DNA of 64,000 nucleotides. Origin: an uncultured Acidobacteriota bacterium. GTDB lineage: Bacteria; Acidobacteriota; Blastocatellia; RBC074. The position numbers and the translations under genes are program-made. The notes beneath the pieces are model-generated. The model saw nothing but the letters and a program-made list of their open reading frames with translations. It did not search any database and was not told the DNA's origin. The stretch spans positions 70,592 to 134,591 of the forward strand of contig CAWEYR010000010.1 of the NCBI GenBank assembly GCA_963813345.1, in the 5' to 3' direction. Positions 1,655 through 47,427 of this stretch are shown here, one piece after another; position 1 is the first letter of the stretch, and each line of letters opens with the position of its first letter.

Positions 1655-1656
1655 AA

Positions 1657-1685
1657 GGTACGTTGTACCGCCTTCAGGCGGAATC
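1657..1685. repeat. Family B hairpin repeat (GGTACGTTGTACCGCCTTCAGGCGGAATC)
   Basis: Perfect 9-bp stem GATTCCGCC/GGCGGAATC with a TGAA loop. The same unit recurs at 18143, 36736, 51153 and 60105. Confidence 0.8.
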
Positions 1686-1693
1686 TTTGTATG

Positions 1694-1754
1694 CAGTTCA
1701 AGCTTCAGCTTGCTCTTGGCCTATTCGCGCAAAGGCAAGCCTGAAGCCTGAACT
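1694..1754. repeat. Family A palindromic repeat (CAGTTCAAGCTTCAGCTTGC ... GCAAGCCTGAAGCCTGAACTC), degenerate right arm
   Basis: Inverted arms share GAGTTCAAGCTT(C/T)AGCTTGC with copies at 6083, 9164, 15005, 21351, 22488, 47330 and 55690. It fills the gap between convergent genes. Confidence 0.75.
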
Positions 1755-1768
1755 CCATACCAAATACC

Positions 1769-4700
1769 TCAGAAATTCACTCGCAATCCAATCACGATCA
1801 AACGCGATCCGGACGCAGTTGTAACCCGTCCGAAATTCGTCGAATTGATGTTCGTGTTGAACCCGTTGACGTAGTCATCAAAGATCGGAGTGTTCAGCGC
1901 ATCGATCATGTCGACCCTGAACTCAAAGTTTGCGGTCTCAGTGAATCTGAAACGCTTGATGATATTGAAGTCAAAGCGGAACGAACCTGGGCCAAGCAAC
2001 GGAGCCTGCGACAGCGTCCCCAGATTTCCGGCAAGTGGATTGACGAGCACCAGATTGCCTGACGAGTCAGTAATTGCGCGCAGCGTGCTGAGCTGTGCAA
2101 GCGCCGGAGTCATGCCTCCGAGCGACGGATCATTGACCTGGTTGTAACCCGTGTTGAATACAACACCGTTTTCCGTCTTCTGAACCCTGACAAAATCGCG
2201 AGGGAGATTCCCGGCCTGCGTGGGCGTGTTGTCGCCGCCGAAGAAATTGAACGTGTTGATCGGTGCAGTGAACGAGATAGGCGAACCAGCGAACTGATTG
2301 TAGATGACGCCCACCTGCCAGAGTTCGACAAGTCGTGCCACCCATCCACTGTTATTACCAAGGAACTTTCTTCCGGGTCCAAACGGCAGCTCCCAAATAC
2401 CGCTGCTCCGGAAGACGTGTGGAACGTGAAAGGTGAGCAACTTCTTCTCGAGCCCTCGATTGCGGCCGTTTCGAAAGCTGTCAAGAAGCTCCTGACTTGA
2501 CCCATCCTCCTCACCTAGCGTCCGGCTCCAGGTGTAATTCGCCTGCAGCGTCCACCCTCGAGAGAACCTCTTGATCACTTCGGCTTGAAACGAATGGAAA
2601 GACGAGTTGGCATAGTTGCCCGCGAGATTCGCACCCGCAAACTGAGGATTCGCGGTCACAAAGTTTTCCGCCAGGCCGACGCGGCGGAGAAGTCCTCCTC
2701 GTGCACCAGTGAAGTCAGTCGTCGTGTTGAGATAGTTTGCAAACGATCCCGCGCTGTTTGTCGCAAAGAAACCCTGAGTCGTGGTGAACCGACGCACAGC
2801 ATCGGAGCCCGGTGATGGTTGTTCCGTTGACGACGCCGACCCCTGGCACGTTTAAGCCCCATGAAGATCTGGTTGAGCAGGGGCGAGGTTCCACCAGTCT
2901 GTGTTACGAGAAATGCGCCCAAAAGCCCGTTCTCAAAAATATTCGTCTCGTTGATATTTGCGGTCCTGATGAGCTTTGTTCCTTTGCTTCCGACATAACG
3001 CAGGTCGAGCGTGAAGTCGCTCATAAGCTCACGCTGAAGCGTGACGTTCCAGTTCTGGACGTAGGGAGTTCGAAGATTGTCGTCGAAGACACGCACCGTC
3101 TGAACGCGATCGGTCAGTGGAACTGTTTCGAGCGGCCTCCCTTGAGGCACCAGTGGAAGCGTCAGACGCGCAAGGTCGAGATAGCCCGTCGATGTAAACG
3201 TAGTCGTGGTGCGCAGACCAGGCTGATCACCCGCGATGACATCAATCAACCGCAGCGCGCTTCGCTCGTAACCCCACCCGTAGCCCATTCGCAGAGTGGT
3301 CTTGTTCTCACCAAAATATGGAATCGCCCAGCTTAGTCCGATCGCCGGCGCAAAGTTGTTCCAGTCATCGTTGTAGAGCTTCGTGTCGGGCTTGGGCGAG
3401 TTCTTTCCGACAAGCTCGATGTTGGTGAGCTGCCCGTTGAGTCTTCCCGGTTGATAAACGTCGGCAAAGCTCGTCCCGGAAATCCCAAAGACCGAAGATG
3501 ATCCCCCGACCAGTCCTGCAGTCTTTCCGTTCGCTTCGAACACCACTCCGTACCAGTCGTAGCGAAGTCCGAGGTTGAGCGTGAGGTTTCGCGAGACTTT
3601 GAAATCGTCCTTGATAAACCAGCTGAATTCCCTTTGCTGCCACGTTCGCTGCTTCCCTTCTCCCGCAAGATAGACCGGGTTTGGTCCCGCAGGAGCATTG
3701 AACGCTTCTCTCGCGTTCGAGAGCGAACCTGAGAGGTCTGTCAGTACGTTCCGAGCCAGCGTCGCATTGTTTCCGAATACAGCGGCGGTGATGCCCTGGA
3801 CCGCAGCTCCTCCGGCTCCCAGAACCGCGCGCGGAAACACATCGAACGAATTGAAGCCATTCGTCGAAACGAATCGAACCTCGAATCCGCCCTTGAACGT
3901 ATGCTTACCTCTAACCCATGTCAGCGTGTCGGTGTACTGGTAGAGCGGCGAGATGCGGCCCTGTGGGTCATTCGTCAGATTGATCGGATCTGTCACTGAA
4001 GCGAAATCGGGTCCATACGCTACATTGTTGATTACTGGAATCAAGTTGCTGTTTTCAGCAAGTTGCCACGGCGAATTGAAGTCCAGGCGTGATCGTTGCG
4101 CTCCGCCTCTGAATTCATTCAGGAGAGTAGGAGAAAGCGTCGACGTGAGAGAGACCTGATAGAAGTAGTTGAGATTTTTCTGATTACCGCCCGGTGAGTC
4201 AGGATAGGTCTGTGCCATGAATCCGTTGAGAAAATTCTCGTTCTCACGTGAAAAGTTGAACGTCAGCCTGTGAGCCTCAGTGAATTGATGGTCAACGCGA
4301 ACGTTGATCTGGTCCCGATCTGCGCTTGTTCGTCTGATCCATGTGTGACCGGCAGTGTTGAGCCCGTCGCCTGCGCGAAAGTTATTTGGAAGCGGCATGA
4401 CTCCAAGGAGCTTGCTGATTGTCCCGGTCGGATCAGGGCCCGTCCGATTGGGATCACGCGTATAGAGATTGATCGACTGGAGGTCTCCAGTTGCTCCCGC
4501 GGGCCTGACCGGATTTCCATTGAGATCGGTAGTCGGAACCGCGGCGTTGGCGTTTCCATTCTGAACACCTGGATAGAATCTGAATATTCCGCGCCGGGCT
4601 GTATCGGTCAAAACAGTTGATGTCACAGTGCCTCGAGCACGTTGGCGTTGTCCCTCGTAGTTTACGAAGAAGAATGTCTTGTTCTTGATAATCGGTCCAC

Positions 4701-5541
4701 CGACGCGACCACCGAATTGATTTCGAATCAACTCATTGCGTGGCGCACCAATGAGGTTGTTGAAGAATGTATTCGCATTCAGAACGGTATTCCGGTGTGA
4801 CTCAAATGCACTTCCGTGAAACTCGTTTCCACCTGCTTTGGTGGTAAGGATCACCTGACCACTGCCGCGGCCAAACTCGGCGTCAGCTGGTGACGATACA
4901 ACGCGGATTTCATCCACCAGATCGACGCTCATGAAGATGGTTGAGTTAACACCCTGATTGATACGCATGTCCTGAACGTTGATTCCGTCTCGAAGAACAT
5001 TCACCTGCCCAATTCGCCCACCAGCAAAGTTGCTTCCAACCAGACCGGCTTGAGTAAGAACCAGCCCAAGCGCATCGCGATTTGGCAGCGGCAGGTCTTG
5101 AACGCTCTTGCCACTGATCACGCCGCCAACCGAATTCGCGCCGATTGCAAGATTCGGATCTAGCGGTGCACTTACTTTGACAACTTCCTCGGAAATCTGT
5201 CCGACCTCCATTTGAAGGTTGAATACAATTCGCGCCGAAAGCTCAAGGGTCACCTCGTCGTGTATGAGGCGCCGGAAACCGGTTCTTTCAGCGGTTAATC
5301 TATAGATTCCTGGCTGAAGACTCGCGAAGGTGTACACGCCTTCGTCATTGGTCGTAGCACTCGTCGAAGCCCCTGTCCTTGAATGCAAAGCAGTGATTGT
5401 TGCTCCCACCACGGCAGCACCTGCTGGATCACTGACAGTGCCGGATAGCGTGGCGTTTGTGGTTTGGGCACGAACATCGAAACCGGCGATGGAGAAGAAA
5501 GCTATCAACAGCCCAGCGAAAAGAGCTCGAGCACGTCTCAT
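1769..5541 (-). CDS. TonB-dependent outer-membrane receptor with N-terminal carboxypeptidase-regulatory-like domain (frameshift near 2800)
   Basis: ORF 2656..5541 begins with signal peptide MRRARALFAGLLIAFFSIAGFDVRAQ, then a CarboxypepD_reg-like segment (GTVSDPAGAAVVGATITALHS...DEGVYTFASLQPGIYRLTAE) and a plug/barrel. ORF 1769..2797 in another frame supplies the C-terminal barrel ending in the terminal Phe (...IGLRVNF). The 3' tail of the upstream ORF is Arg-rich junk. Confidence 0.85.
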
Positions 5542-6082
5542 CTGATCATCCTCCTGTTTGTCTTCGAACCGTCAGGTCGCCCATCAATGGCCCGTGTGGC
5601 GTTCCGTGGGTCGATTTGATGTAAGATGGCTGCCAAGTGACTCCAACAACTCGTCGTCAAAGTCGTCGAAATCCTGTTGGCAACCTTGATTCCACGTTTG
5701 CCAGTTGCTGCAAGCTTCTGATTCTGCTTAGTGTCAGCGTCCGCGCGGGGAGATGGACCCTCGACAGGCGTGCAATTTTTCGTAAGAGTTACAGGATTTC
5801 GTCTACTTTGGGGGATGCTGGCGTTTCAGTTACTCGGATTTCACAGGCAAAGGAAATGCAAGATAGAATAATCAAGAGCGCTGTTAGTTCAATCTGTACT
5901 TGTGAAAACGCCTACTCGTATTAGTATCAGGACTTTGAAGCTACTCGCGCCTGCTTTCCGGATAATCGGTTAGTTATCACAATCTGTTGAGTGACGTATG
6001 GTGACTGTCAGCGTTGCATAATTGCTATCAATCTAATTGGAATCTCATTTTTTCTGTGAAACTTTTTTTGAGGCACTCGCTA

Positions 6083-6161
6083 GCAACCACAAGCTAAAGC
6101 TTGAACTCAAACTAGTAGTTGAACTATCGAGGTTTGAGTTCGAGCTTTAGCTTGTGGTTGC
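6083..6161. repeat. Family A palindromic repeat, arms in swapped order (GCAACCACAAGCTAAAGCTTGAACTC ... GAGTTCGAGCTTTAGCTTGTGGTTGC)
   Basis: The same arm sequences as copy 22488..22598, but the outer and inner halves are exchanged. It lies in the 660-bp divergent intergenic region. Confidence 0.7.
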
Positions 6162-6201
6162 ACACCAGCCCCTCGGAGACGAGAGGCACTCAGAGAACGC
6201 A

Positions 6202-7451
6202 ATGTCAAATAAACGATACTCTATTTGGAATGGCACCTATTTAGCACTTCTATTCCTTGCGCTACATTCGACTTCGTACTGCTCAGGACTGGAATCAATG
6301 GCGTGGACCTAACCGCGACGGGTCCGTCAGACAATTTCATCATGCCTGCGACACTTCCGGAAAAACTTTCACAAAAGTGGAAAGTAGTCGTCGGCGATGG
6401 GCACTCTTCGCCGGTCGTGTCGAGCTCGCGTGTCTACGTGCTATCCCGGCAAGGCGAGCAGGAGGTCATCGCGTGCTATGAGCTCAGGTCAGGGAAACAG
6501 TTGTGGAAAGAAGCATACATTGCCGCCTACCGGGTCCATCCAGCCGCGACAAATCACGGGAAGGGTCCAAAGTCGACTCCGCTTCTGTTTTCAGGGAAGA
6601 TCTACACAGTCGGTATCACGGGAGTCGTATCCTGTCTTGACGCAGGCACCGGGCGCGTCAAATGGAGAAAGGATCTGTCCAATCAGTTCAAGCAGACGTC
6701 GCCACTTTACGGAACGGCGGTTTCTCCCATCGTCGATCGCGGCCAGCTGATTGTTCATCTGGGAGGGCATGATAACGGCGCATTGATGGCCTTTGATGCC
6801 GAGAGCGGTGCAGTCAAATGGAGCTGGACGGCGGATGGCCCTGGATACTCGTCACCGATCATTGTTGAGCTTGGTCAGACTCGTCACTTGATCACCCAAT
6901 CTCAACGCAATGTAATCGGCGTAGCTCCGGCAACCGGCGAGCTTCTGTGGAAGATTCCCTTCACTACAGAATACGATCAGAACACCGTGACTCCTGTCGT
7001 TGTCGGCGACATGGTAATCTTTTCGGGAATCAACAAGGGCATCGCTGCATATCGATTGGTGAGGAGTGGCGGGAAATGGACCGCCGAGCAGGCCTGGCAA
7101 AACAAGGAGATCAGTCTCTACATGAACTCTCCTGTTGTCGCCGGATCGAAACTCTTCGGGCTTTCGCATAAGAACAAGGGACAGTATTTCTGTCTTGACG
7201 CTAACAATGGAAAGGTCCTTTGGTTGAGTGATGGGCGTCAGGGTGACAACGCGGCGATGCTGATCGCGAAGGGAACGATTCTCTCACTGAGTACAGACGG
7301 GGACCTGACCATCTTTCCTGCAACAGAAAAGATGCCAGGCGAGTTCAAAAAGCTTCGCATCGCAGACAGTCCGACCTGGGCTCATCCCGTGCTCATGGGA
7401 AAAGAGATCCTGGTAAAGGACGCTACAACACTCGCGCTCTGGAGTTTCTGA
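6202..7451 (+). CDS. PQQ-like beta-propeller repeat protein (BamB-like fold), secreted; two frameshifts near 6255-6270 and 6330-6340
   Basis: Signal-peptide-like MSNKRYSIWNGTYLALLFLALHS in frame 1. The hallmark QDWNQWRGPNRDGSV is in frame 2 (ORF 6257..6481). The propeller blades (KWKVVVGDGHSSPVV..., GKIYTVGITGVVSCLDAGTGRVKWRK..., GELLWKIPF...) are in ORF 6225..7451. Confidence 0.7.
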
Positions 7452-7454
7452 GCA

Positions 7455-7530
7455 GGAGTGGGCAGTGGGCTCAGTGCGGCAGTGGTCAGTCGGGCAGTGG
7501 CCAGTGGCAGTCAGTGGCTGTGGTCAGCGG
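7455..7530. repeat. Tandem heptamer-like array (GGCAGTG/GTCAGTG/CCAGTGG units)
   Basis: About 9 imperfect 7-mers right after the PQQ gene stop. The unit resembles the heptamer flanks of Family A copies (compare GGTCAGT at 55661), but no hairpin core is present. Confidence 0.6.
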
Positions 7531-7620
7531 TCATCTGACTCAGACTCTTTCTTCCCCCAGCCTCCACCGCCAGGCGTTTCAATCAGGAACCTTGTTCCAG
7601 CTGGCGCCGTTAACGAGAAC

Positions 7621-9127
7621 TTACCCTGGAGTCTCTTTCTCTGCGCCTTTGATGGTTTTCATCGTGCTGCTCCCAACCTTGCCTGGATCGCCGCCGTTCA
7701 AACCATATGGCGGGAATCGTCGTCTGTCGGAAAGCAGAGAAACTCGAGCGGGAACCAGCACCTCTATCTCACGCACGACTCCGTCGCCGCCGCGGAACCT
7801 TCCATTTCCGCCCGATCCGCGGCGAATCTGATAGCGCCGGACCCGCATCGGATATGCATATTCGAGCGCTTCAACCGGTGTATTGAGCGAGTTCGTCATG
7901 TGTGTATGAACAGCTGAAAGACCATCTCCTGATGGCCTCGCCCCCATTCCGCCTGCGATTGTCTCGTAATACGAGAATTCACGTCCCTGATGTGCGTCCC
8001 AGCCGCCAATCGTCAGATTGTTCATGGTTCCTTGTGACGCTGAAGGGATCCGCGAGGGCGCAGCCTGTGAAAGCGCCTTGAAGAGTACGTCAACGATGCG
8101 TTGCGACGTCTCAACGTTTCCGCCAGCCACCGGCGCTGGTGGCTTCGCGTTGACAATTGTCCCCTCCGGAGCGATCACTTCGATCGGAGAGATTACTCCG
8201 GCACTCGCGGGCACATCACCAGCGATAAGACAGCGGAAGACGTAGTAAACCGCTGAAACCGTGATCGCCTCCACGGCGTTTATGGGACCGTTCACCTGCG
8301 CTGCGCTTCCCTGTGAAATCGACTTTCGCACGATCTCCCTTGATCTCGATCGTGACTCTGATTGGAATCGCATCGGCGCTCTCACCATCATCATCGAGTG
8401 CATCTTCCGCGCGATATATACCATCCGGCATCTCCGAGATTGCCTTTCGAGAGAGCCTCGCAGCGTAGTCAATTAGATGTTTCGCGTACTCACGCACTTC
8501 AGCGATGCCATACTCCTCGACAATATTGAGTATCCTCTCGGTGCCAACTCTCAAGGCCCCAAGCTGAGCCGCCAGGTCTCCCTCGCGCTCTTCGCGTCCG
8601 CGCACATTTGCAAGAAAGAGGCCCAGCAGTTCCAGATCAGTTACACCTCCGCGCGCGAGATGTACGGGAGGAATCCTCAAGCCTTCCTGGTAGATTTCAG
8701 TCGCTGCTCCCATCGAACCCGGGGTCGAACCTCCGATGTCGGCGTGATGGGCGCGGTTTGCAACATAAAAAAGGGGGCCGCTCTGCGATCGGCGAGCAGC
8801 GCGTGAGATTCCAAACACTGGAGCCACAAGAGTGACATCCGGCAGGTGCGTGCCCCCAGCGTAAGGATCATTCAGCATGATCACATCGCCGGCGTTCAGT
8901 TCGCAGCTGGCGATCGCAGCGCTCACCGACATCGGCATCGATCCGAGGTGAACCGGCATGTGATCACCCTGCGCAATAAGCCTTCCGGCGCCATCAAAAA
9001 CGGCGCATGAATAGTCTCGCCGTTCCTTGATGTTTGGAGAAAAGGACGCCCGGCGCAAACTCAAACCCATTTCCTCGGCTACCGAAGTAAACAGGCATCG
9101 AAAAATTTCGAGGCGAATTGAATCCAT
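7621..9127 (-). CDS. hyuB: Hydantoinase B / 5-oxoprolinase subunit (HyuB family); frameshift near 8310-8325
   Basis: ORF 8216..9127: MDSIRLEIFRCLFTSVAEEMG...DHMPVHLGSMP...LNDPYAGGTHLPD. ORF 7621..8472 in another frame: GPINAVEAITVSAVYYVFRCL...YYETIAGGMGARP...GGDGVVREIEVL. The junction is ...VDFTGKRSA then QVNGPINA. Confidence 0.85.
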
Positions 9128-9134
9128 AAGATTG

Positions 9135-9230
9135 CGGGGTCAGGGGTTGGGGATCGGGACTTGTCAGTTCAAGCTTCAGCTTGCTCGTACCATTCGAGCA
9201 TGTAACACAGCAAGCTAAAGCTTGAAAAAT
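9135..9230. repeat. Family A palindromic repeat with G-run flank (GGGGTCAGGGGTTGGGGATCGGG + CAGTTCAAGCTTCAGCTTGCTCG ... CAGCAAGCTAAAGCTTGAA)
   Basis: Hairpin core at 9164..9230. The 9135..9157 flank has four G3-4 runs with 2-3 nt loops, a canonical G-quadruplex motif. Confidence 0.75.
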
Positions 9231-9307
9231 GCTCTGTTCTGCTCTACTCCTTCGCTGGTCCAAGCTTCTTCAATGCAGTAGCGGCTTCAGCCCTCACATC
9301 AACTACC

Positions 9308-10111
9308 TTATCGGTTTCTGCAATCTCCGTTAAGAAGGTCGCGACCCGCTTCCAGCTTGAGCTCTCCAATCCAATACGCGGCCTTGGAGCGGAAATCCGG
9401 GTTGTTGGCCTGCTTCAGTATTCCGGTCAGCTCGTGTGCACCGTTCCTGGTCTTCGAAGATTCGCGAATCGCCTCTTTCGCTATTCTTTGCGTTTCCGCA
9501 TTGTCAGAATCCGACAAGCCGAACAGAAAAAGCATTCCCTTTCGCGAAAAGCCTACGTCGCGCAACTGGAAAATGTAAAGGATGGCCTGACAGCGTGCGT
9601 AGGCGTCACCCCCATCAACAATCGGCCGGCTGTACGGATTGGCAAGGAAGTTGAGCGCAGCGTAGCTTGGCTTGTAGACCTGAAACGAGCACAGCGTGCG
9701 CCCCAGCTCGGCAGTCACTCGCGAATCAGAATCAGAAATAGCTTCCTGAAGGGCGTCAATGGAGTCCCGATCACCAAGTCTCCCGAGTGCCTGTACAGCC
9801 GCCGCTCGCACCAGCGGATCCTTGTCATCACGCATGGCCTTAACGAGTCCCGCTGTTGCCCGCCGGTCACAACTTGAGCCGAGCTCCGAGGCAGCGCCGA
9901 TCCTGGTTGCCGCATCATCTGATTTGAGGCTCGCGAGAGCCGCGGTAACAGTCCTGGTCTTCGCAGGAAGGTTGGCAAGAGATGGACATTGCTCATAGAG
10001 CGGCAATGCTCGCGGTCTCAAGTCCCCTCGTGCTTCCTGTCCAATTGTTAACGTTGTTAACGCTGGAAGAAACGTCACCAGCAATGTCAGCGAGAATGCA
10101 TATCTACGCAT
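9308..10111 (-). CDS. Secreted HEAT-repeat (PBS-lyase-like) protein
   Basis: Signal peptide MRRYAFSLTLLVTFLPALTTLTIG. Repeated DxxxRxxAxxxLGxxG units (DAATRIGAASELGSS, DPLVRAAAVQALGRLG, DSRVTAELGRTL). The stop is 4 nt from the upstream gene's stop region, so the two are co-oriented. Confidence 0.65.
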   Translation of the reverse strand: MRRYAFSLTLLVTFLPALTTLTIGQEARGDLRPRALPLYEQCPSLANLPAKTRTVTAALASLKSDDAATRIGAASELGSSCDRRATAGLVKAMRDDKDPLVRAAAVQALGRLGDRDSIDALQEAISDSDSRVTAELGRTLCSFQVYKPSYAALNFLANPYSRPIVDGGDAYARCQAILYIFQLRDVGFSRKGMLFLFGLSDSDNAETQRIAKEAIRESSKTRNGAHELTGILKQANNPDFRSKAAYWIGELKLEAGRDLLNGDCRNR

Positions 10112-10114
10112 CAG

Positions 10115-11449
10115 CTATCCCAGATCCGGATTGTTTGGCGTCAGCAGCTTAAGCGCACGTGCTGCGTGACCCAGCGCTATTACAAGATCACTCATAAACT
10201 TTACTCCCTGTCCGCGTCCAATCATCGAATCAACCGTCCGTTCAAGCGCGCCTATATCCATCGCTCGCCAACGCACGAGATACTCGTAGAGTCTCTTCTC
10301 GCCTTCCGCGATTCGGCGCTCCTGAGAAGGTGTGATCGCAAAGAGCTTGTGCAATCGGACATAGTTGATCGACTCAAAACAGTGCCCCAGCAACTGAACG
10401 AATGAACGCAGCTTCAATCCTTCGACAGCTATCGGGGGCGCCCCTTTGCCCTCTGTGTCGTAAGTGTATTCAAGTGCGTCAGCATCGCCCTTGAGGCGAT
10501 AAGTCACAATATCGAATTGTTGTTTGATTCGCTGCTCGAGATTGTTTTCGCGATAACCGTGTCTGAGGCACGAAAGAAACCCATACATCGAATGCAGACC
10601 GTAGCAGCTATACGTTCTGATCTCTTTGAAGAATTCCTCTGGCTCCTTTTCTCCGAGCGCCAGTTGCTGAGCCGTTTTGGCCGTCACTGCCTCGTAATCT
10701 GCGAGACCCCGATCAATTACAGTGTTGAGCTCAATCGTCTCGCCGTAAGCATTGGTCCACGTCGATTGATCGGGAGTCATTAGAATTGAGAATGCGATTA
10801 TCCCCCACGGCAGATGATTGATCGTCAGTTCCGGATCGAAGCGCTTGAGATTCTGCGGATCGAATCGAAAAAGCGCTTTTGCGCTATTGCCGAGATCTAC
10901 AAGGCTGTACTCGCGGCCCGAGACGGAAAGCTTTTGATCATTGCTTACACCCGCTTCGAGGAATGTTTTCAGAAAGCTGTTGTCGTGAACTTCATTGATT
11001 CTTTCGAAATAGACGTAACGCTTTCCCGCAACTTCCTTATCGGCAGCATAGGCTGTGCACAGCCGATTCACGGCGTTCGAGCCATCTGTCCGAGTAAAGT
11101 TACGCCCGAACCCGCGAACTGCGTGTATCAGGACATAAGGATTGTCAATCGCGCGCGCATAATACTCGGTGAGCTCATTGACTGAACGCAGCGCGTTCTC
11201 GTAGTTCGGCTCAAGGGTTACCGGCGGCAGTTTGCGCGCAATCGTAGGCTTTGGTGCCTCCACATTGGGTTTGGTTGATTCAAACCATCCTGCCCGGTAG
11301 CCTGCAAACCCTACGCCGGCGGCAGCAATTGCGCCACCTCCAAGAAGTAAGAAATTCCTTCGTTGATTGCTTTGCTGGACGTTCTTTTGAGTGTTTTCCG
11401 GCGGGCGCGAGCCACGCTTTTTCTTTGGCATATATGTCAATACTAACAA
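10115..11449 (-). CDS. Tat-signal hypothetical protein (444 aa, unknown family)
   Basis: Intact ORF. Twin-arginine motif NQRRNFLLLGGGAIAAAGVGFA. No recognisable catalytic motif. Immediately upstream of, and co-oriented with, the HEAT protein. Confidence 0.6.
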   Translation of the reverse strand: MLVLTYMPKKKRGSRPPENTQKNVQQSNQRRNFLLLGGGAIAAAGVGFAGYRAGWFESTKPNVEAPKPTIARKLPPVTLEPNYENALRSVNELTEYYARAIDNPYVLIHAVRGFGRNFTRTDGSNAVNRLCTAYAADKEVAGKRYVYFERINEVHDNSFLKTFLEAGVSNDQKLSVSGREYSLVDLGNSAKALFRFDPQNLKRFDPELTINHLPWGIIAFSILMTPDQSTWTNAYGETIELNTVIDRGLADYEAVTAKTAQQLALGEKEPEEFFKEIRTYSCYGLHSMYGFLSCLRHGYRENNLEQRIKQQFDIVTYRLKGDADALEYTYDTEGKGAPPIAVEGLKLRSFVQLLGHCFESINYVRLHKLFAITPSQERRIAEGEKRLYEYLVRWRAMDIGALERTVDSMIGRGQGVKFMSDLVIALGHAARALKLLTPNNPDLG

Positions 11450-11511
11450 AGAACCCGGGAGCGCCAGGCTCCAGCCTGGCGAATGTCTGTCACGCGCCAG
11501 GCTGGAGCCTG
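11445..11511. repeat. Family C palindromic repeat (CCCGGGAGCGCCAGGCTCCAGCCTGGCG ... CGCCAGGCTGGAGCCTGGCGCTCCCGGG)
   Basis: Near-perfect 28-bp inverted arms with an 11-bp spacer. The second copy is at 16897..16986. It overlaps the last codons of hyuA. Confidence 0.8.
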
Positions 11512-13589
11512 GCGCTCCCGGGCGAATTGCGATTCAGGATCAAATTTCGCCAGGCGTCGACTCGAGCGCGCCATCGCTCGGGAAGCCACGTCGTTGAGCC
11601 ATACTCGACAATGATCGCAGGTGATTCAATTACTTCACCCGGTGAGAAACGCTCGCGATTGTAGACCGCAACTTGTCTCAATCTCGTGCCTACGACTGCC
11701 GATGCACGGTGTGACGGCGTCGCTCGCCTCGCGGCCTTCATTCTGGCTTTAGGTAGGTCGGGTTTTTGCGTGATTCCGTTCGCCCTGAGCCTCAGCGTCA
11801 CAATCTCGATTTCGCGAAGTGGGTCACTGTGCCCATAGCGCTCGAGATGAAGACGGTTGAATTCGCCTATTGGATCACCCGCACCACGGTACTTCGAGCT
11901 CAAAGGACTGACCGCGATAACGCATTGAAAAGGATCTGACCAAATCAGTTTCGCGCCGGGTAAACCCCTCTACTCGAAGATCCGCATGCGCCTTTCTTTC
12001 AAGTCTCAGAAACCTTCGTTCGAAATCAGCACCGAGCGAGTCACCGGCTTTCACCCTCACCATCAGTGTCTGGCTGTAATCTTTCACGACATCGGCAAGA
12101 AGCACACCGAGCGCAGAAAAATTCCCCGGGTCGATCGGAACAATGACTCGGGAGATTCTGAGCGCGTCCGCCAGCGCTACGGCATGCAGCCCGCCTGCGC
12201 CTCCAAAGCTCATCAGAGAAAATAGTCGCGGATCGTGCCCTCGCTCAATTGAAACGAGTCTCAATGCCTGCTCCATGTTCAGATTTGCAACTCGCACGAC
12301 ACCAAGAGCGGCCTCTTCGATACTGAATTTCCGGCTCGAGGCGCGCGCAAGCTCCTTTGCCAGCCTGGCCTAGCGCTGTTCGCGAACGCTCGACATCGAG
12401 CGGCATAGAGTTGGATAGCAGTCCCACCCCGCCAAAGCGGCCAAGGATCAGATTCGCATCGGTGACAGTCGGTTGATCGCCGAGGCCGTAACAGGCGGGT
12501 CCCGGATCAGCTCCCGCCGACTGCGGACCTACACGTAAGGCGCCTCCAGCATCGACTCTCGCAATCGATCCGCCTCCTGCACCCACAGTGTGAATGTCGA
12601 GAACCGGAACAGCGACGGGCAAGCCTGCAAGTATCGCCTCATTCGTGGTTATAGCCTTGCCGGTGGAGAGTGACACGTCGGTCGAGGTGCCACCCATATC
12701 GAATGTAATAACTCGCTTGAAGCCGGCTTGCTTACCAATTGCAAGTGCCGCAACGACTCCGCCGGCTGGACCAGACAGGATGGTCCTAACCGGCTCGCGA
12801 GCTGCTTGCTGAGCGGATATCGACCCACCCGACGATTGCATGATTCGGACGCGTGGCCGGTGCCGGTTCCCTTCAGTAGTGTTCAATCCTTGTTCGAGGT
12901 TGCTCAGATATCGTCCGACTTTCGGCACGAGATAAGCATTGATGACAACGGTAGAAGTCCGCTCATATTCCCGATATTCCGGGAGAATCTCATGAGAAAG
13001 GGAGATATGGACTCCAAGGTCTGAGAGAGCTTTTGCGAGCACGGTCTCATGAACCGGGTTGGCAAATGAAAAGAGCAGACATACGGCAATCGATTCCACG
13101 CGAGCACGTTTCAGCCGCTCACGAAGTTGCGGCAAGAGCTGCCAGGTTGAGATCGTCGAGAATAGAACCATCTGAGGCGATACGCTCGGCAATTCCGAAA
13201 CGCAGATTCCGGGGGACCAGCGGGGAGCGGCGCTCTACGTTCAAGTTATAAAGATCGGGCCGTGCCTGGCGGCCAATCTCGATAACGTCCTCAAAACCCG
13301 CCGTGGTGATAAGCGCCGTGCGAGCCCCTTTGCCCTCGAGAAGAGAATTTGTACCGACAGTCGTGCCGTGCGCGATTTCAATCGCGAGCCCTGGTGGGAC
13401 CGCGCCGTCAACCTGTTTGTCTGCAATCAGTTTGATGATGCGATCGACACCGGCAATAATCGACTTTTCGGGATGACGTGGGGTGGAAGGGAGCTTAAAG
13501 GCGATCCGTTGACCCTTCCAGGTCGCAACGAAGTCGGTGAACGTGCCGCCAGTATCAATCCCTATCCGTAAGTTCAATTGTGTTATCAT
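11490..13589 (-). CDS. hyuA: Hydantoinase A / 5-oxoprolinase subunit (HyuA family); at least 3 frameshifts
   Basis: Four consecutive minus-strand ORFs in different frames (13119..13589, 12245..13192, 11875..12297, 11490..11903). In order they give MITQLNLRIGIDTGGTFTDFV...HGTTVGTNSLLEGKGARTALITTAGFEDVIEIGRQ; ...SIAVCLLFSFANPVHE...FDMGGTSTDVS; ...ERGHDPRLFSLMSFGGAGGLHA; ...FNRLHLERYGHSDPLREIEIVTLRL. Confidence 0.85.
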
Positions 13590-13806
13590 TTACGCGATGT
13601 ATTCATTTTGTGAAACACAATCTGCTTCTCAGCGTGAGAATAACGATGTCGTTTGACTTCACGGCGGGCCGCAGTTGCTTTGCCGGGTAACGTAAGCTAC
13701 AACAGGAGTTCCCCTTTTCGCGCCTGCGGGCCACAGAAAGAACGGGGAGCAATTATCACTTTTCGACGCGCAGACGTCGAGAGTCTTGTGGGAGGATGGA
13801 TCTCTA

Positions 13807-14385
13807 ATGATACGAAAACCGCTGATCGTCGCGCTTACCCTCGTGTGTTTGTTTAGTGCGACGGCACTCGCCCAGAACAAACCACTCGTTTATACGGTCG
13901 GTCCGAAACTCGCAATCGGAACATTGAACACCGGACAGCCAGACGAATATCAGGTCCGTGGCAAAGCCTCATACACGCTCACAGCCGCGAATTCGGATGA
14001 TACGCTGGTGGGAGTTCTAACCTACACGCTTCCCGACGAAGCCCGTCAAAAGATTGCGCAACTCACCGGCAAGCCGGTAGCTCAGGTGCCCGCAACGCAT
14101 ACGTTGAAAGATGTCGTCGCGGAATTCCAGAAGGGTACGGCGTGCCCTGTCGTCCACCTCGAGATCAAGCCGATGGATATGACGGTTGCCGGAACGAAGC
14201 TCCGCTTCACCAAGAAGATGGTTCTTGACGTTCAGGGTCGCGAACCTGGATCGCTCCAGAAGTTCACTCCACAGCAGGAAATGGATATCCAGTTCTGCGT
14301 GTGGACGCGGCAGATCAACAACGGCGCCATTCGCCGCGGGATCATCCAGCGCGTGAATCAGTTGATCGCCGGTGAGAATCCGTAA
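13807..14385 (+). CDS. Secreted hypothetical protein, paralogue 1 (unknown family)
   Basis: Signal peptide MIRKPLIVALTLVCLFSATALA. Shares YTLT, RQKIA, KGTACP, (C)..TRQIN and RRGI motifs with the downstream gene. Confidence 0.65.
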   Translation: MIRKPLIVALTLVCLFSATALAQNKPLVYTVGPKLAIGTLNTGQPDEYQVRGKASYTLTAANSDDTLVGVLTYTLPDEARQKIAQLTGKPVAQVPATHTLKDVVAEFQKGTACPVVHLEIKPMDMTVAGTKLRFTKKMVLDVQGREPGSLQKFTPQQEMDIQFCVWTRQINNGAIRRGIIQRVNQLIAGENP

Positions 14386-14959
14386 CCAGCAAAGGTTATT
14401 GCACATTCTACTGTCGGTAGCGGCGGTTCTGCCTGCATTCCTGATCACGGAGGCGGGGCAGCCCCGCCCTCCGGTCGTCTATACCACGCCTGCGCGCAAC
14501 CTCGAGTTTTCCTTCGTTCCTGCCACGTCGTCGGCTTCCGGTGCGATCAGCTCTCCTGTCGCTCTGGATGGGCGCGCCAATTACACACTCACATCAGTAG
14601 GAGACGACGACAGCCTCAGCGGAACATTTACGATCATTCTTTCGAATGTGGTGCGGCAAAAGATTGCCGAAATTACGCAGTCGAAGGTCGACCAGGTCGC
14701 GGAAACCTACTCGCGTAAGAACGTGCCGGCGAAATTCGCAAAGGGCACGGCCTGCCCAAGTATCGATATCGAATTTGCGGAAGTTGAGATTGACGTGACA
14801 GGTGGTCGGATTGCGACGTCCGGCGCAAAACTTGTCATGCCAGAGTCAGCCGATCGACTAGTACAGTTGATGTGCTTCCTGACCCGCCAGATCAACGCCA
14901 ATCTCGAAAGACGCGGTATCGTCCGCAGCATCAATCGCACGATTGAAGGGGATAAGTGA
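14372..14959 (+). CDS. Secreted hypothetical protein, paralogue 2 (unknown family)
   Basis: Start overlaps the stop region of paralogue 1 by 14 nt. N-terminal hydrophobic segment LLHILLSVAAVLPAFLI. Two cysteines conserved with paralogue 1 (GTACP, MCFLTRQIN). Confidence 0.65.
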   Translation: MRIRNQQRLLHILLSVAAVLPAFLITEAGQPRPPVVYTTPARNLEFSFVPATSSASGAISSPVALDGRANYTLTSVGDDDSLSGTFTIILSNVVRQKIAEITQSKVDQVAETYSRKNVPAKFAKGTACPSIDIEFAEVEIDVTGGRIATSGAKLVMPESADRLVQLMCFLTRQINANLERRGIVRSINRTIEGDK

Positions 14960-14967
14960 GAAGAGGG

Positions 14968-15101
14968 TGCTGAGTGCTGGTGCGGGTGCTGGGTGCTGAG
15001 TATGGAGTTCAAGCTTTAGCTTGCCGTCTGCAATGCATTGCGAACGAGCAAGCTAAAGCTTGAACTCCATACTCAGCACTCAGCACTCAGCACTCAGCAC
15101 T
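14968..15101. repeat. Family A palindromic repeat with GTGCTGA/GGTGCTG heptamer flanks
   Basis: Left flank: about 5 heptamers. Core: GAGTTCAAGCTTTAGCTTGC (15005..15024) ... GCAAGCTAAAGCTTGAACTC (15049..15068). Right flank: 4 x TCAGCAC. Confidence 0.85.
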
Positions 15102-15110
15102 CTCTTTGAA

Positions 15111-15515
15111 TCACCTGCGGTGCGTGATCATACTGTCAACGCTCCACGCGCCGCCTCCCGCGAAGGACAAGTAGAGAAACAGAAAAGAGTACAGCGCAGC
15201 GAGCTCACCACCATTGAGGACAGGGTAAAAGCCTTGTGGCGCGTGAGCCATGAAATAGGCTACGGCCATCATCCCTGAAAGCAGAAAGGCAACGGGCCTG
15301 GTGAAGATACCAAGGAGCAGTAAGAGCCCGCCGAAAAACTCCAGGATTCCTGCAACCAGCACAAGTGCAGGCAAAGGGCTGGGCATAGGTTGCTGGGGTG
15401 GTGGATAGCCAAACAGCTTCTGAGCGCCGTGCTGCATGAAAAGCAACGCAGCTACGATTCGCAAAACGCTGAGTATCCGGGGAGCCCAGGTTGAATACAA
15501 GGATTCGTAGGCCAT
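15111..15515 (-). CDS. DoxX family membrane protein
   Basis: MAYESLYSTWAPRILSVLRIVAALLFMQHGAQKLFGYP... Four TM helices typical of DoxX. The upstream ORF extension overlaps the neighbouring gene and is discounted. Confidence 0.7.
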   Translation of the reverse strand: MAYESLYSTWAPRILSVLRIVAALLFMQHGAQKLFGYPPPQQPMPSPLPALVLVAGILEFFGGLLLLLGIFTRPVAFLLSGMMAVAYFMAHAPQGFYPVLNGGELAALYSFLFLYLSFAGGGAWSVDSMITHRR

Positions 15516-15543
15516 TCGTCCTCCTGTCAGCGATTGTGTTTGA

Positions 15544-16791
15544 TCAGTGACTGTGCGGGTGAGGATGCGTCTGGTAATGCTGTCTGAGCAAGTCCTTGCC
15601 GTAGTCATTTCCGTTGGGCGTTCTGACCACGGTATGAATATGTTCCCGAGTCGGTGTGCGCCGGTCGAGATGCCGGAGCGCAATTGGAAGCTGATGATCA
15701 AACTCGATGAGAATCACCGGGCTCTGAATACGATAGTAGAAAACACTCGTTGAATCTGAGCCGCCGACCCACGCGAACCATGTGTCATCGAGATGTTTTC
15801 GTACTTCATCCATCTTCACTTTCGCATGGCCGTCTCTCATGTTCCGCACGTACTCGTTGATCACCTCCAGCAGTTGCTGCTTTTGTGGTCCGGACAGTTC
15901 CGCCGCTCGTATGCCTGCATAGTTAAGGACGATATTGTCCTTGAAGGCTTCACCAACGTTGTTGTTGCCTGACTTTGAGACGTTGATGATCGCTTTTGCG
16001 CGCTGTTTTTCATCCAGAGCCTTGAGGAGTGCCAGTCCCTTATCCTGCTCGTCCTGCAGCACTCTCGTGCCCGCGTACTTCCCCGCGTTCGCAATCACCG
16101 GTTCAGAACCCATGAAGGTTGGCGACATCACCACCTGATCGCCCATCACAAAGTAATTGATGTTGAGATGATGGCCGTCGAGCTGCCATCCCCACGGCTC
16201 TTTGTCTGAGGGCGACCCCATGACTGTAATCCAATAGAGCGAGTCACCATATTGTTCGAAGTCGTTGTTATTGAGCTCACCGAGCGTGTGGTTGAGATTC
16301 ATGATGTCGCGTGAAAGTTTCAACCCCTTCGCGCTCAGCGACGCGCGCAGCAATCCAATCGCGCTTTCGCGTTGCGCGTCAGACATCTCCTTAAAGCTCG
16401 TACCCTGACGGATATAAAAATGCTGGTTCATCCACTTGCGCCATTCCGGATCATCGACCGCATATTCGGTGCGTGCCCGCTGCTCTTTGGTCAAGGCGGC
16501 AAGGAACAGAGAGGCTGCCTTACGGACTGGTTCCGTTGAGACTCCGGTCGACCGTACAGAAAAAAGGCCCGGTACTACCGCGCCTTCGGTAGTAACGCCT
16601 TTGAACGGTTCCTGAAGGCCCCGCGTTTCAGCATCCTTCGACATTTGCCGGAAACGTTCTTCTCGGCTTGCGGTTTGCGAACCAGGCTGTTGTTGCGAAA
16701 GCGTTCGAACGCCCAGTCCGACAATGGCGAGCAACGCGACATACCCTAGAAACGAAAAGCAACGTGCAATTGGCAAATCTGGATTAGTCAT
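15544..16791 (-). CDS. Secreted hypothetical protein, DUF3500-like, with C-terminal His-rich tail
   Basis: Intact 415-aa ORF. N-terminal anchor or signal LGYVALLAIVGLGV. Motif WGWQLDGHHLNINYF. Ends HYQTHPHPHSH. The family call rests on recall of the GHH-containing DUF3500 and is uncertain. Confidence 0.5.
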   Translation of the reverse strand: MTNPDLPIARCFSFLGYVALLAIVGLGVRTLSQQQPGSQTASREERFRQMSKDAETRGLQEPFKGVTTEGAVVPGLFSVRSTGVSTEPVRKAASLFLAALTKEQRARTEYAVDDPEWRKWMNQHFYIRQGTSFKEMSDAQRESAIGLLRASLSAKGLKLSRDIMNLNHTLGELNNNDFEQYGDSLYWITVMGSPSDKEPWGWQLDGHHLNINYFVMGDQVVMSPTFMGSEPVIANAGKYAGTRVLQDEQDKGLALLKALDEKQRAKAIINVSKSGNNNVGEAFKDNIVLNYAGIRAAELSGPQKQQLLEVINEYVRNMRDGHAKVKMDEVRKHLDDTWFAWVGGSDSTSVFYYRIQSPVILIEFDHQLPIALRHLDRRTPTREHIHTVVRTPNGNDYGKDLLRQHYQTHPHPHSH

Positions 16792-16896
16792 TTAGGTCTC
16801 CTGGGAATCGGTGAAGATCTCCTTTGCGCTAACTCTAGCCCTGATGGGCGATTGACGCCAGACCCACGAGCGTATGTTCGTAGCCGAGAGTCCGTG

Positions 16897-17015
16897 GGAG
16901 CGCCAGGCTCCAGCCTGGCGCGTGTCAATGTCGCTAAGGCGTTCGGCGATGATGACTGCGCCAGGCTGGAGCCTGGCGCTCCCGGGCGCTGGCGCTCCCA
17001 GGGCGGTACAGCGTA
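16897..17015. repeat. Family C palindromic repeat followed by a Family B half-site (GGCGGTACAGCGTAGC)
   Basis: GGGAGCGCCAGGCTCCAGCCTGGCG ... GCGCCAGGCTGGAGCCTGGCGCTCCCGGG, then CGCTGGCGCTCCCAGGGCGGTACAGCGTA. Compare 32866..32901. Confidence 0.8.
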
Positions 17016-17109
17016 GCTTTACTTGCGGTTGCACCATTCTGTGCTAGAATGACGCTGTCCGTCCCCGCAGAATGCCAAGACGAGTTCTATCTTTTTACGT
17101 TTCAGGGGA

Positions 17110-18126
17110 GTGGCCATGTTCAGGAAAGCGATATCCATTGGGGCGCTGAGCATCATTGCTACGGTGTTCTTTGGTCTTGCTGTCACCCAGGCACAGCAGG
17201 AGGTCCAGGAACCCCGGTCAGCAACGCCCGCCCGGCAGGACCTGACTCCGGCGGCTTCCGACGACAAGCAGAAACGCGACCAGGGTCCGGTTGTCAAAGA
17301 GCGCACCGATGTCGTCACACTCTCCGTAACGGTTACAGACCCCTACAATCGTCTTGTTACCGGGCTCAACAAAAACAATTTCGAAATCTTCGAAGACAAG
17401 ATCAAACAGGATATTGAGTTCTTCAGGGATGAAGATGTACCGGTAAGTCTCGGCATAGTATTCGACGTTTCGGGCAGTATGAAAGGCAAGCTCGACCGCG
17501 CGCGCGACGCATTGAAAGCGTTCATCGAGACGAGTCACGATGATGATGACTTTTTCCTCGTCGGATTCAACCAGCGTGCAAATCTGCTCTCGGAATTCGC
17601 AGACGGCTCGAGCGTCGTCAACAAGCTGAGTTTTGTCGACGCCAAAGGGCAGACGGCGCTTTACGATGCAGCATACCTGGGCATCGAAAAAGTCCGGCAG
17701 GGACGGCACGCCAAGCGCGCGCTTCTGCTCATCTCTGATGGCCAGGACAACTCGTCGCGGTACACGTATGGCGAGCTCCGGAAGCTTCTCAAGGAAGCCA
17801 ACGTTCAGATCTACAGTATTGGAATCGTCGAAATGGGCGGCGGTGCGGGCAGCTCGCTTGATCTGCAGGGGCAATCAATTCTCGAAGAAGTCGCTCAGGT
17901 CACCGGCGGAAAGGCATTCTTCCCCCGGTCAGGAGCAGAGCTCGAAGACGCGACAACACGAATTGCGCTTGAACTGCGGCATCAATACAGTATCGGCTAC
18001 ATTCCTACCAACGTGAAGCGTGACGGCCAGTGGCACAAGCTTCGAGTCAAAGTGAACCCGCCAAAGGGTCTTCCGAGTCTCCAGGTAAGGACAAAGGAAG
18101 GCTACTATTCTACGGCTGAGAAGTAG
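17110..18126 (+). CDS. VWA domain-containing secreted protein
   Basis: Signal peptide MAMFRKAISIGALSIIATVFFGLAVTQA. MIDAS-type vWA core (VSLGIVFDVSGSMKG ... LLLISDGQDNSS ... IYSIGI). Confidence 0.8.
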   Translation: MAMFRKAISIGALSIIATVFFGLAVTQAQQEVQEPRSATPARQDLTPAASDDKQKRDQGPVVKERTDVVTLSVTVTDPYNRLVTGLNKNNFEIFEDKIKQDIEFFRDEDVPVSLGIVFDVSGSMKGKLDRARDALKAFIETSHDDDDFFLVGFNQRANLLSEFADGSSVVNKLSFVDAKGQTALYDAAYLGIEKVRQGRHAKRALLLISDGQDNSSRYTYGELRKLLKEANVQIYSIGIVEMGGGAGSSLDLQGQSILEEVAQVTGGKAFFPRSGAELEDATTRIALELRHQYSIGYIPTNVKRDGQWHKLRVKVNPPKGLPSLQVRTKEGYYSTAEK

Positions 18127-18553
18127 ACGTCAGCTGACGCAAGATTCCGCCTGAAGGCGGTACAACGTACCTTACTCCGCTTTTTTCTTTCGTGCCCTTT
18201 GTTTTCTTCTCGGTTTGAAAACTCTTTACAGCTGCGTCTTCGTCGGGGAAGGACTCGATCAGGTCGAGAAGCTGTGTAATCTTCAGCGCGCCGTAAACGC
18301 GGTCGGTCAATCCTACGAGTTTCAACTCGCCACCACCGTCCTTGACCCTCTTGTAAGCGCGCACGATCTCGCCGATGCCCATGCTGTCGATGATAGGCAC
18401 CTCAGTCAGATTGAGCAGTATTTGATTGGTTCCAGTGCCCATAACCCTGTCGATAAGCATCTGTAACTGGAATCCACCCTGTCCCTTGATGAATTTTCCA
18501 CGAAGGTCCAGCGACGCGATCGTTTCCACGTAATGTATGCCAATCGTTAACAT
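18110..18553 (-). CDS. STAS-domain protein (anti-sigma-factor antagonist, SpoIIAA-like) with repeat-encoded C-terminal extension
   Basis: MLTIGIHYVETIASLDLRGKFIKGQ...DSMGIGEIVRAYKRVKDGGGELKLVGL...VYGALKITQL. The last 12 or so residues ([14 protein letters not shown]) are translated from the Family B repeat. The start could alternatively be upstream at 18613. Confidence 0.7.
   Translation of the reverse strand: MLTIGIHYVETIASLDLRGKFIKGQGGFQLQMLIDRVMGTGTNQILLNLTEVPIIDSMGIGEIVRAYKRVKDGGGELKLVGLTDRVYGALKITQLLDLIESFPDEDAAVKSFQTEKKTKGTKEKSGVRYVVPPSGGILRQLTSTSQP
18143..18171. repeat. Family B hairpin repeat (reverse orientation: GATTCCGCCTGAAGGCGGTACAACGTACC)
   Basis: Exact reverse complement of the 1657..1685 copy. 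Lies in the 3' end of the STAS ORF. Confidence 0.8.
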
Positions 18554-19203
18554 AGATGTGGGGAATACTCTTCCAGAGCCGTTTTCTGCGGAAGGCGCTC
18601 TAAGCAGCGCCAAAGTACATCCTGCATTCTAACCGACAAGATGCTAAGTTCAAACCGTTGTCACTGGTGGTGACTCGGTTACTTCGAAAAACCTACTCTC
18701 TCCCGTTCGCGACCACTTTACAAACACAGTTCAAAAAAATGAGGTTGGTGTGAGCCAATTCGCCGCAAAATTTCGCCTTCCCGATTGAGACCGCAGGCAA
18801 CAGGTTAGTTGCCTCGCGCAGTGGTGAAGCCGTTGGCCAAGTGTCAATGCCATTTCAAGAAAACGCAGGCTGGTGAGCTTCCACCGTGCCAGACAGCAGA
18901 CCAGAGTTATTGGCCTGCAAAGGAGAAGATCATGTTTGTGGAAATCATGGGAATCTTCCTGTTGTTCAGCGCCAGCTTCTTACCGTCCACGACCCAATCA
19001 GATGGCGGATTGACCTCCCCGAAGCGCGTCGAGCAGCATCGCATCGTTACGCGTCCTGACCTCTCTCACGAGTACTTGCTTAACCCAGCTAGTTCCGGCT
19101 GCCCAAGCTGCCGCCCCCGTTGAGATTTCAATGGGGTACGTGCCGGGACGAGTATGAGACCCCGCATTGAACCAAAACCAGTTCGCGATAGGAGGATGTA
19201 TCG

Positions 19204-47267: not shown

Positions 47268-47427
47268 AGTGCTAAGTGCTGAGTGCTGAGTGCTGAGTGC
47301 TGAGTGCTGAGTGCTGAGTGTTGCAGTCTGAGTTCAAGCTTCAGCTTGCTGATCTGCGATATCCCATAGACAGCAAGCTGAAGCTTGAACTCCATACTCA
47401 GCACCCAGCACTCAGCACTCAGCACTT
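47268..47427. repeat. Family A palindromic repeat with asymmetric GTGCTGA heptamer flanks (7 left, 4 right)
   Basis: (GTGCTGA)x7 + GAGTTCAAGCTTCAGCTTGCTG (47330..47351) + 19-bp loop + CAGCAAGCTGAAGCTTGAACTC (47371..47392) + (TCAGCAC)x4. Best-preserved copy. Confidence 0.9.

Follow-up and report, generated by a model that had tools for sequence, protein, structure and literature searches.

Results

Two genes for exported proteins lie between hyuA and hyuB

We analysed a four-gene locus within a 64,000-nucleotide stretch of DNA (hereafter the window; positions 70,592 to 134,591 of contig CAWEYR010000010.1, forward strand, assembly GCA_963813345.1) from an uncultured Acidobacteriota bacterium of the Blastocatellia, in which a pair of genes for predicted exported proteins separates the genes for the two subunits of a hydantoinase/oxoprolinase-type enzyme. 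Read along the minus strand, the order is hyuA (11490..13589), encoding the A-type subunit; X (10115..11431), encoding a protein of 438 residues with a predicted twin-arginine signal-anchor and a globular domain (residues ~80–440); the gene for a Sec-exported HEAT/PBS-type repeat protein of ~288 residues (hereafter HEAT; 9244..10111); and hyuB (7524..9127), encoding the B-type subunit. The stop codon of X and the start codon of HEAT are 3 nt apart, and each of the two outer spacers holds a palindromic repeat, at 11454..11522 (3' end of hyuA, upstream of X) and at 9136..9226 (between HEAT and hyuB). We use X for the open reading frame (ORF) with the twin-arginine motif, number its residues by the 444-aa ORF as called, and denote the loci of relatives by L001, L002, L096 and so on. 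The initial annotation of this stretch had described a same-strand two-gene module between hyuA and hyuB with a repeat on each side, and the ORFs, the Pfam-matching pieces and the two palindromic elements all confirm that layout. The two inner ORFs exist as it had called them (10115..11449 and 9308..10111), but X more probably starts at 11431 and the HEAT gene more probably extends to 9244, as detailed below.

The X–HEAT pair is an old, duplicated module of the Blastocatellia

Blastocatellia metagenome-assembled genomes (MAGs) were scanned for relatives of the locus, one genome per species, and 80 loci were kept out of 112 matching stretches; HyuA, HEAT and HyuB were mapped onto these loci and all neighbouring ORFs were clustered, yielding context classes. 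X has 291 close homologues, all of them unnamed or 'hypothetical' and all from Acidobacteriota/Blastocatellia. Whether such homologues always pair with a HEAT protein, a question raised by the initial annotation, can be answered with 'mostly': X is followed by HEAT in ~70 of 77 loci, usually across a spacer of −14 to +50 nt and often with the two genes overlapping, and a few loci carry X without HEAT.

The order hyuA–X–HEAT–hyuB (type A) recurs in ~20 loci, which include the window, L001 and L002 (X proteins 90% and 55% identical to that of the window, respectively) and reach down to ~50% X identity. In another ~18 loci (type B) X–HEAT–hyuB stays linked while hyuA is displaced or out of range. 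The pair also occurs on its own, either behind a LOG-like gene on the opposite strand and ahead of sucD (type C, ~17 loci) or ahead of scpB/scpA and a class I Trp/Tyr-type tRNA synthetase gene (type D, ~5 loci), and the housekeeping genes that adjoin stand-alone pairs comprise mreBCD, scpAB, the class I Trp/Tyr-type tRNA synthetase gene, xseA and sucD. At least 24 MAGs contain two X–HEAT copies, usually one hyu-linked and one stand-alone. A neighbour-joining tree of X places all hyu-linked copies, that of the window among them, in one clade and the stand-alone copies in another. Class-wide adjacency, two-copy genomes and separate clades thus identify X–HEAT as an old, duplicated and self-contained two-gene module of the Blastocatellia. 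One paralogue lineage was already part of the hyu operon when these genomes split, at ~50% X identity. Over 82 loci, X–HEAT always lies between hyuA and hyuB when those two lie together, a count in which an empty site could not show because the loci were retrieved via X.

The contexts bear directly on the main alternative to a functional link, namely that X–HEAT has nothing to do with HyuAB and is a self-sufficient periplasmic module, fixed in the hyu operon by chance and sharing a promoter only. Such a module might well be found as a stand-alone pair among housekeeping genes, as it is in about half of the loci, might act in the periplasm while HyuAB acts in the cytoplasm, and might tolerate the frequent displacement of hyuA seen in type B loci; yet chance fixation sits poorly with a hyu-linked X clade that is distinct and long-lived, with HEAT–hyuB junctions that are often 4–30 nt long or overlapping (typically <30 nt among relatives, the genes overlapping by 4 nt in L002 and lying 5 nt apart in L086), and with the persistence of an intact X–HEAT–hyuB block in the ~18 loci where hyuA has moved away. 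We regard an unrelated module as somewhat unlikely and favour a role for hyu-linked X–HEAT that is coordinated with HyuAB. Searches of plasmids (tblastn with X and with a distant relative) found nothing, and literature searches combining hydantoinase, HEAT repeat and twin-arginine, or Blastocatellia and oxoprolinase, found nothing relevant.

Divergent from hyuA lie two tandem paralogous genes for secreted proteins of ~195 aa each (13786..14385 and 14372..14959, plus strand), which match nothing in Pfam or PADLOC. This pair (33 members in the loci) is retained in nearly all type A loci together with a VWA gene upstream of hyuA, and may belong to the same functional unit as hyuA–X–HEAT–hyuB. It is adjoined by a DUF3500 gene (15544..16791) and a DoxX gene (15111..15701), both on the minus strand; the same block is present in L001, and L096 has the DUF3500 gene with no DoxX gene called.

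The flanking palindromes are probably REP-like elements rather than insertion scars

The element on the hyuA side, 'Family C' of the initial annotation, is a perfect palindrome whose 28-nt arms are 100% complementary and whose predicted RNA fold is very stable (−78.5 kcal/mol, z = −12.6). The final codons of hyuA extend into it, and a second copy lies at 16893-16986 in another spacer, with 0 chance matches expected. On the hyuB side, the 'Family A' element combines a G-tract (9136-9160) with a hairpin of 18-nt arms (9168-9226); its predicted RNA fold amounts to −35.4 kcal/mol (z = −4.2), and further copies of the hairpin occur at 1697..1714, 15008-15064 and 47333-47389 of the window. G-tract arms appear to be common among these palindromic elements. 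Rfam assigned the flanking repeats to no family and returned sub-threshold hairpin look-alikes only. Both are short, stable palindromes that are intergenic and present in several copies (as counted within 64 kb), features that characterize repetitive extragenic palindromic (REP) sequences.

Close relatives differ in what occupies these two sites. L096, a species-level relative whose contig was retrieved via the HEAT protein and is 96% identical to the window across 9.3 kb, carries diverged copies of both elements at the same two positions. In L001 the hyuA-side palindrome is absent from the hyuA–X spacer, which holds a fragment of the other hairpin family instead, and the HEAT–hyuB spacer (10190..10410) holds a different palindromic element of ~190 nt with an AT-rich core, bordered by GGGGTCA-type runs on one side and (CCCTGAC)n heptamer runs on the other; the hairpin family of the hyuB side sits elsewhere in L001. 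No inverted repeat was found in the hyuA–X spacers of seven other type A loci.

These observations address the proposal of the initial annotation that the module was possibly inserted by a repeat-mediated event. In its explicit form, X–HEAT would be a recent acquisition, placed between adjacent hyuA and hyuB genes by a transposon or miniature inverted-repeat transposable element (MITE), and the repeats would be its scars. That both spacers hold repeats is suggestive, as is the fusion or adjacency of the A and B parts in solved homologues (7hk5_A), and total GC content of X lies ~2.4 points below that of hyuA and hyuB in 13 of 13 loci. GC content at third codon positions (GC3), however, is not lower on average in the same loci, so the dip reflects the amino-acid composition of X and not a foreign origin. 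A search for a direct or inverted repeat bracketing X–HEAT found none, and the two flanking elements, which are of unrelated families, share neither a terminal inverted repeat (TIR) nor a target-site duplication, leaving the pair without the marks expected where a transposon or MITE bounds an insertion (a single element or TIRs on both sides, and a duplicated target site). L001 has other elements at the same sites, and HEAT–hyuB junctions elsewhere are short or overlapping. Above all, because the same order is kept in ~20 genomes spanning ~50% X identity, most of them without repeats, X–HEAT is not a recent insertion. The initial annotation had itself named this gene order in repeat-free relatives as the observation on which its proposal would fall, and L002 and the other type A loci, with the seven repeat-free hyuA–X spacers among them, provide it. 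What survives of that proposal is the novel periplasmic module, in the form of a conserved and tightly coupled gene pair; a recent repeat-mediated insertion is extremely improbable. X–HEAT may have been inserted once, long ago, in the ancestor of the hyu-linked clade. We favour the interpretation that the palindromes are dispersed, lineage-specific REP-like elements that would have colonised the two spacers later, possibly as transcript hairpins; the one on the hyuA side may serve as a transcript-end or stabiliser hairpin.

X combines a probable Rieske-like Tat signal-anchor with a globular domain outside the described families tested

A start methionine conserved in 54 X homologues aligns with M7 of the window protein, and the true start is thus probably the ATG at 11431, giving 438 aa, rather than the TTG at 11449. 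As the initial annotation had pointed out, the N-terminus carries a twin-arginine motif, QRRNFLLLGGGAIAAAGVG, which conforms to the S/T-R-R-x-F-L-K-type pattern of proteins exported by the twin-arginine translocation (Tat) pathway; R30 and R31 are each conserved in at least 90% of the 54 homologues. The Rieske-type Tat signal family UCR_Fe-S_N (PF10399) is matched by 34 of these 54 (best E = 8e-6) and TM_PetC (PF25471) by six, and the window protein itself scores below cut-off (TAT_signal, 15.8 bits; UCR_Fe-S_N, 17.7 versus 24 bits). In the alignment of the homologues the motif is followed by a hydrophobic stretch and then a conserved G-Y-x-A-G-W-F, with no AxA site, from which we infer an uncleaved, Rieske-like Tat signal-anchor.

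The globular domain of X had been described as lacking any recognisable domain, and every comparison that we made agrees. No match was found in Pfam or NCBIfam for the window protein or for 84 family members scanned singly, and no sequence relative was found in the PDB. The structure-prediction check suggested by the initial annotation gave an AlphaFold2 model of high confidence (predicted local distance difference test (pLDDT) score 87.8, core >95), for which Foldseek found no neighbour in the PDB (best E = 0.095, template modelling (TM) score 0.22) and none in BFVD. By sequence and by model, the domain thus appears to fall outside every described family tested (Pfam, NCBIfam and PDB chains). 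Two candidate identities, an imelysin/EfeO-like protein (suggested by a GHxxE motif) and a type-3 copper or tyrosinase-like protein (suggested by six histidines), were set aside, the corresponding folds being absent from the Foldseek PDB list. A defence role for X–HEAT was likewise dropped: X matches none of the PADLOC anti-phage defence models, and HEAT gave a single generic, repeat-level match (HEAT-ARM_XIII, 21.9 bits).

Across 93 distant and 40 near members of the family, H109, G115, E153, H155, W215, C282, G284, H286, R318, G355, H356, E359 and H428 are retained, a signature of five His, two Glu, one Cys, one Arg and one Trp that crosses phyla. The ratio of nonsynonymous to synonymous change in X is 0.03–0.05 as dN/dS and 0.03 as pN/pS between the window and L096; strong purifying selection acts on X and on HEAT.

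HEAT is a predicted exported alpha-solenoid

The secreted HEAT/PBS-lyase-like protein named in the initial annotation is readily recognized as such: the ORF matches HEAT_2 with 65.7 bits (cut-off 27.7) and HEAT_PBS with 34.7 bits (cut-off 20.9), its N-terminus is hydrophobic, and its homologues bear classical Sec signal peptides with AxA-type cleavage sites. The ORF as called (10111..9308, 267 aa) is cut short at 9308 by a 1-nt insertion near 9333, and the gene goes on in another frame to a stop codon at 9246-9244. AlphaFold2 models the protein as an alpha-solenoid of 13 paired helices (pLDDT 91.4), for which Foldseek lists alphaRep proteins, CpcE (5n3u_A, E ~1e-5) and deoxyhypusine hydroxylase, the HEAT/alphaRep matches having a probability of 1.00. 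Residues C42, C81, R102, S189-R190-K191 and T221/N223/G224 are invariant. The protein fell far short of the NCBIfam equivalogs for NblB (32.5 versus 300 bits) and CpcE (28.7 versus 330 bits), and no phycobiliprotein gene was found in any locus context examined.

Distant relatives of X are extracytoplasmic, and several lie beside metal-handling genes

When 1.84 billion representative proteins were searched with the X profile, 274 clusters were returned: a close-knit set from the Blastocatellia, a mid-distance set of 360–400 aa with RR-x-F-L signals, and a distant set whose signals are of the Sec or lipoprotein type. Members with a named source belong to Hyphomicrobium and Polyangiaceae and bear the annotation 'hypothetical protein'. 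Since a Tat, Sec or lipoprotein signal is invariably present in distant relatives, the family is, as far as these signal predictions go, consistently extracytoplasmic. A word-index search with the distant alignment yielded 11 proteins and a metagenome scan with alignment A4 four short contigs with little context; seven neighbourhoods of non-Blastocatellia relatives were found overall.

Genes for handling copper, iron or haem occur in four of the five neighbourhoods of a Tat-bearing subgroup (P0139). One (L091, 8..5348) contains a multicopper oxidase, PCYCGC, cytochrome c and SCO1; another (L097) contains LGT, a YHS domain and PEMT; another has hemerythrin, P19-type iron transport and polyferredoxin; and L090 (3504..6496) has CcdA-like DsbD_2 and CcsA-like Cytochrom_C_asm. 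An ICMT/PEMT-type methyltransferase recurs in two of L090, L091 and L097, all three being loci of mid-distance, Tat-bearing relatives. The idea that X might substitute for ResB/CcsB, prompted by the single context L090, was rejected, as X is without multiple transmembrane helices. The Hyphomicrobium relative (P0133, WP_325454895.1; L098/L099, 6721..12234) has a secreted alpha/beta-hydrolase-like ORF on one side and a TonB-dependent receptor on the other. Genes for an AraC regulator and a pyrroloquinoline quinone (PQQ) dehydrogenase are in the vicinity, as is a metallo-beta-lactamase-fold gene, and the ORF upstream of the Hyphomicrobium relative was ruled out as an X paralogue (hhalign probability 0.1). 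Taken together with Tat export and the His/Glu/Cys signature, these neighbourhoods, a small and anecdotal sample, are consistent with a periplasmic metal-handling or metal-dependent role for the X family.

The same data can be read in terms of a non-catalytic X, that is, a periplasmic binding protein, sensor or envelope component whose conserved His, Glu and Cys residues would bind a ligand or support folding. X shows no recognisable catalytic fold or motif, its partner is a generic protein-binding solenoid, and its Hyphomicrobium homologue has a TonB-dependent receptor as a neighbour. Nonetheless, Tat export combined with five His, two Glu and one Cys retained family-wide is explained most simply by a cofactor site assembled before export, and copper and iron redox genes stand near several relatives; a purely non-catalytic X thus described strikes us as unlikely.

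Frame breaks in hyuA, hyuB and HEAT are most likely sequencing errors

The genes on either side, both on the same strand as X, are clear members of their Pfam families (E down to 1e-101), with Hydant_A_N, Hydantoinase_A and Hydant_A_C spread over four ORF pieces of hyuA, and Hydantoinase_B matching both ORF pieces of hyuB at 9127..7621; the end of hyuB at 7524 is approximate and was projected from L096. Their nearest solved relatives are N-methylhydantoinase 7hk5 and 6yra, and the HyuA and HyuB queries both align to one chain, 7hk5_A, in which A and B are fused. Scores fell below the NCBIfam caprolactamase equivalog (306 and 502 bits versus 1000) and likewise below the acetophenone carboxylase family. 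HyuA and HyuB are ordinary members of the ATP-dependent hydantoinase/oxoprolinase/caprolactamase group and are equivalogs of no named enzyme.

Both genes are broken in the window, which the initial annotation had overlooked. A tblastn comparison with the intact L002 HyuA runs through frames 1, 2, 3 and 1 of hyuA, and a corresponding comparison splits hyuB into three pieces in frames 2, 3 and 1. Relative to L096, hyuA has 1-nt insertions at ~13139, ~12370 and ~11880 and a 1-nt deletion at ~12875, and hyuB has 1-nt insertions at ~8311 and ~7642.

With hyuA frameshifted three times, hyuB twice and HEAT once, next to an unbroken X, the locus could be decaying into pseudogenes around a single intact gene. 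All of these frame breaks, however, are single-base indels with respect to a 96%-identical relative in which hyuB is unbroken (532 aa), and codon-wise pN/pS between the two is 0.02–0.04 for hyuA and 0.11 for hyuB. L096 and L001 are frameshifted as well, at positions that differ from those in the window, and the alignment of the window with L096 contains 33 gap openings in 9.3 kb, mostly of single bases. An unrelated gene of the window, for a CarboxypepD_reg/TonB-like outer-membrane protein (2656..5541, minus strand), is frameshifted too and ends with an out-of-frame tail, and the window sequence from 1 to 20000 is in general prone to indel errors. Given the single-base indels, the intact hyuB of L096 and the low pN/pS, we read the frame breaks as most likely sequencing errors, and consider genuine decay of the locus highly improbable.

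Discussion

The reading that we put forward, with a degree of confidence slightly on the favourable side, is that hyuA–X–HEAT–hyuB is an old, conserved arrangement of the Blastocatellia in which a predicted periplasmic metalloprotein, X, and its HEAT scaffold act in coordination with HyuAB. The metal site itself is a more tentative component, which we place a little below an even chance. On this reading X would fold in the cytoplasm, probably around a copper or iron ion, would be exported in the folded state by the Tat system and would stay tethered at the outer face of the inner membrane, where it would bind the HEAT solenoid, delivered by Sec and serving as its stoichiometric scaffold or partner. 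For the hyu-linked paralogue, this activity in the periplasm would be co-expressed with the cytoplasmic, ATP-dependent lactam or hydantoin hydrolase HyuAB, so that X–HEAT and HyuAB would probably carry out two steps of one pathway.

Several points weigh against this reading. Metal binding, an X–HEAT complex and enzymatic activity are all predictions from indirect evidence. Neighbourhoods with a metal theme are small in number and belong to distant relatives, and two further contexts are uninformative: that of the distant relative P0170 (L089) has no metal-related neighbour, and that of L095, the fifth of the P0139 subgroup, has no copper, iron or haem gene. One X subgroup has replaced C282 by Ser and H428 by Tyr. 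X–HEAT is also found in loci without hyu genes and is hence independent of HyuAB, and HyuAB is cytoplasmic while the conserved unit includes no transporter. A bolder version, in which X would be the founder of a new fold family, one of periplasmic metalloenzymes exported by Tat and anchored in the membrane, and the product of X–HEAT would be imported and ring-opened by the co-transcribed HyuAB, is in our view improbable.

If this bolder version is nevertheless correct, the locus would encode a previously undescribed two-compartment catabolic pathway typical of the Blastocatellia, bacteria that are abundant in soil and of which few are cultured. X is a candidate for a new periplasmic metalloprotein fold and a reasonable experimental target: its family is unannotated, yet is under purifying selection, has a His/Glu/Cys signature and a dedicated exported partner, and is present in two or more copies in many of the genomes examined. 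The fixed position of X–HEAT between genes for the subunits of a predicted ATP-dependent lactam/hydantoin hydrolase offers a lead toward its substrate.

Several components of the locus resemble known systems. Akin to REP and other small palindromic intergenic repeats, the flanking elements are short, GC-rich, highly stable and multicopy, are placed at spacers and gene ends and vary among close relatives; they differ from the established REP families in having no Rfam family, and their copy number was counted within 64 kb alone. The N-terminus of X resembles the signal-anchor of Rieske Fe-S proteins (PF10399, PF25471), in that RR-x-F-L precedes a hydrophobic helix rich in Gly and Ala, and an AxA cleavage site is not evident. 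Rieske proteins are inserted by the Tat system and keep their signal as a membrane anchor, which suggests the same for X. The likeness is limited to the first ~50 residues, whereas the globular domain of X has neither the Rieske fold nor the Cys-x-His cluster motifs. HEAT shares its repeat type (HEAT_2, HEAT_PBS) and its predicted alpha-solenoid with CpcE/CpcF, NblB and alphaRep, and is encoded beside X as CpcE is encoded beside its partner protein; unlike CpcE and NblB, it is Sec-signalled and predicted to be periplasmic, is paired with a protein that is not CpcF-like, and has Cys, SRK and T-x-N-G invariants of its own. Finally, the flanking genes belong by Pfam with HyuA/HyuB, CapA/CapB and N-methylhydantoinase. 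The A and B genes of hydantoinase/oxoprolinase enzymes are generally adjacent or fused, whereas here two genes for exported proteins are interposed between them.

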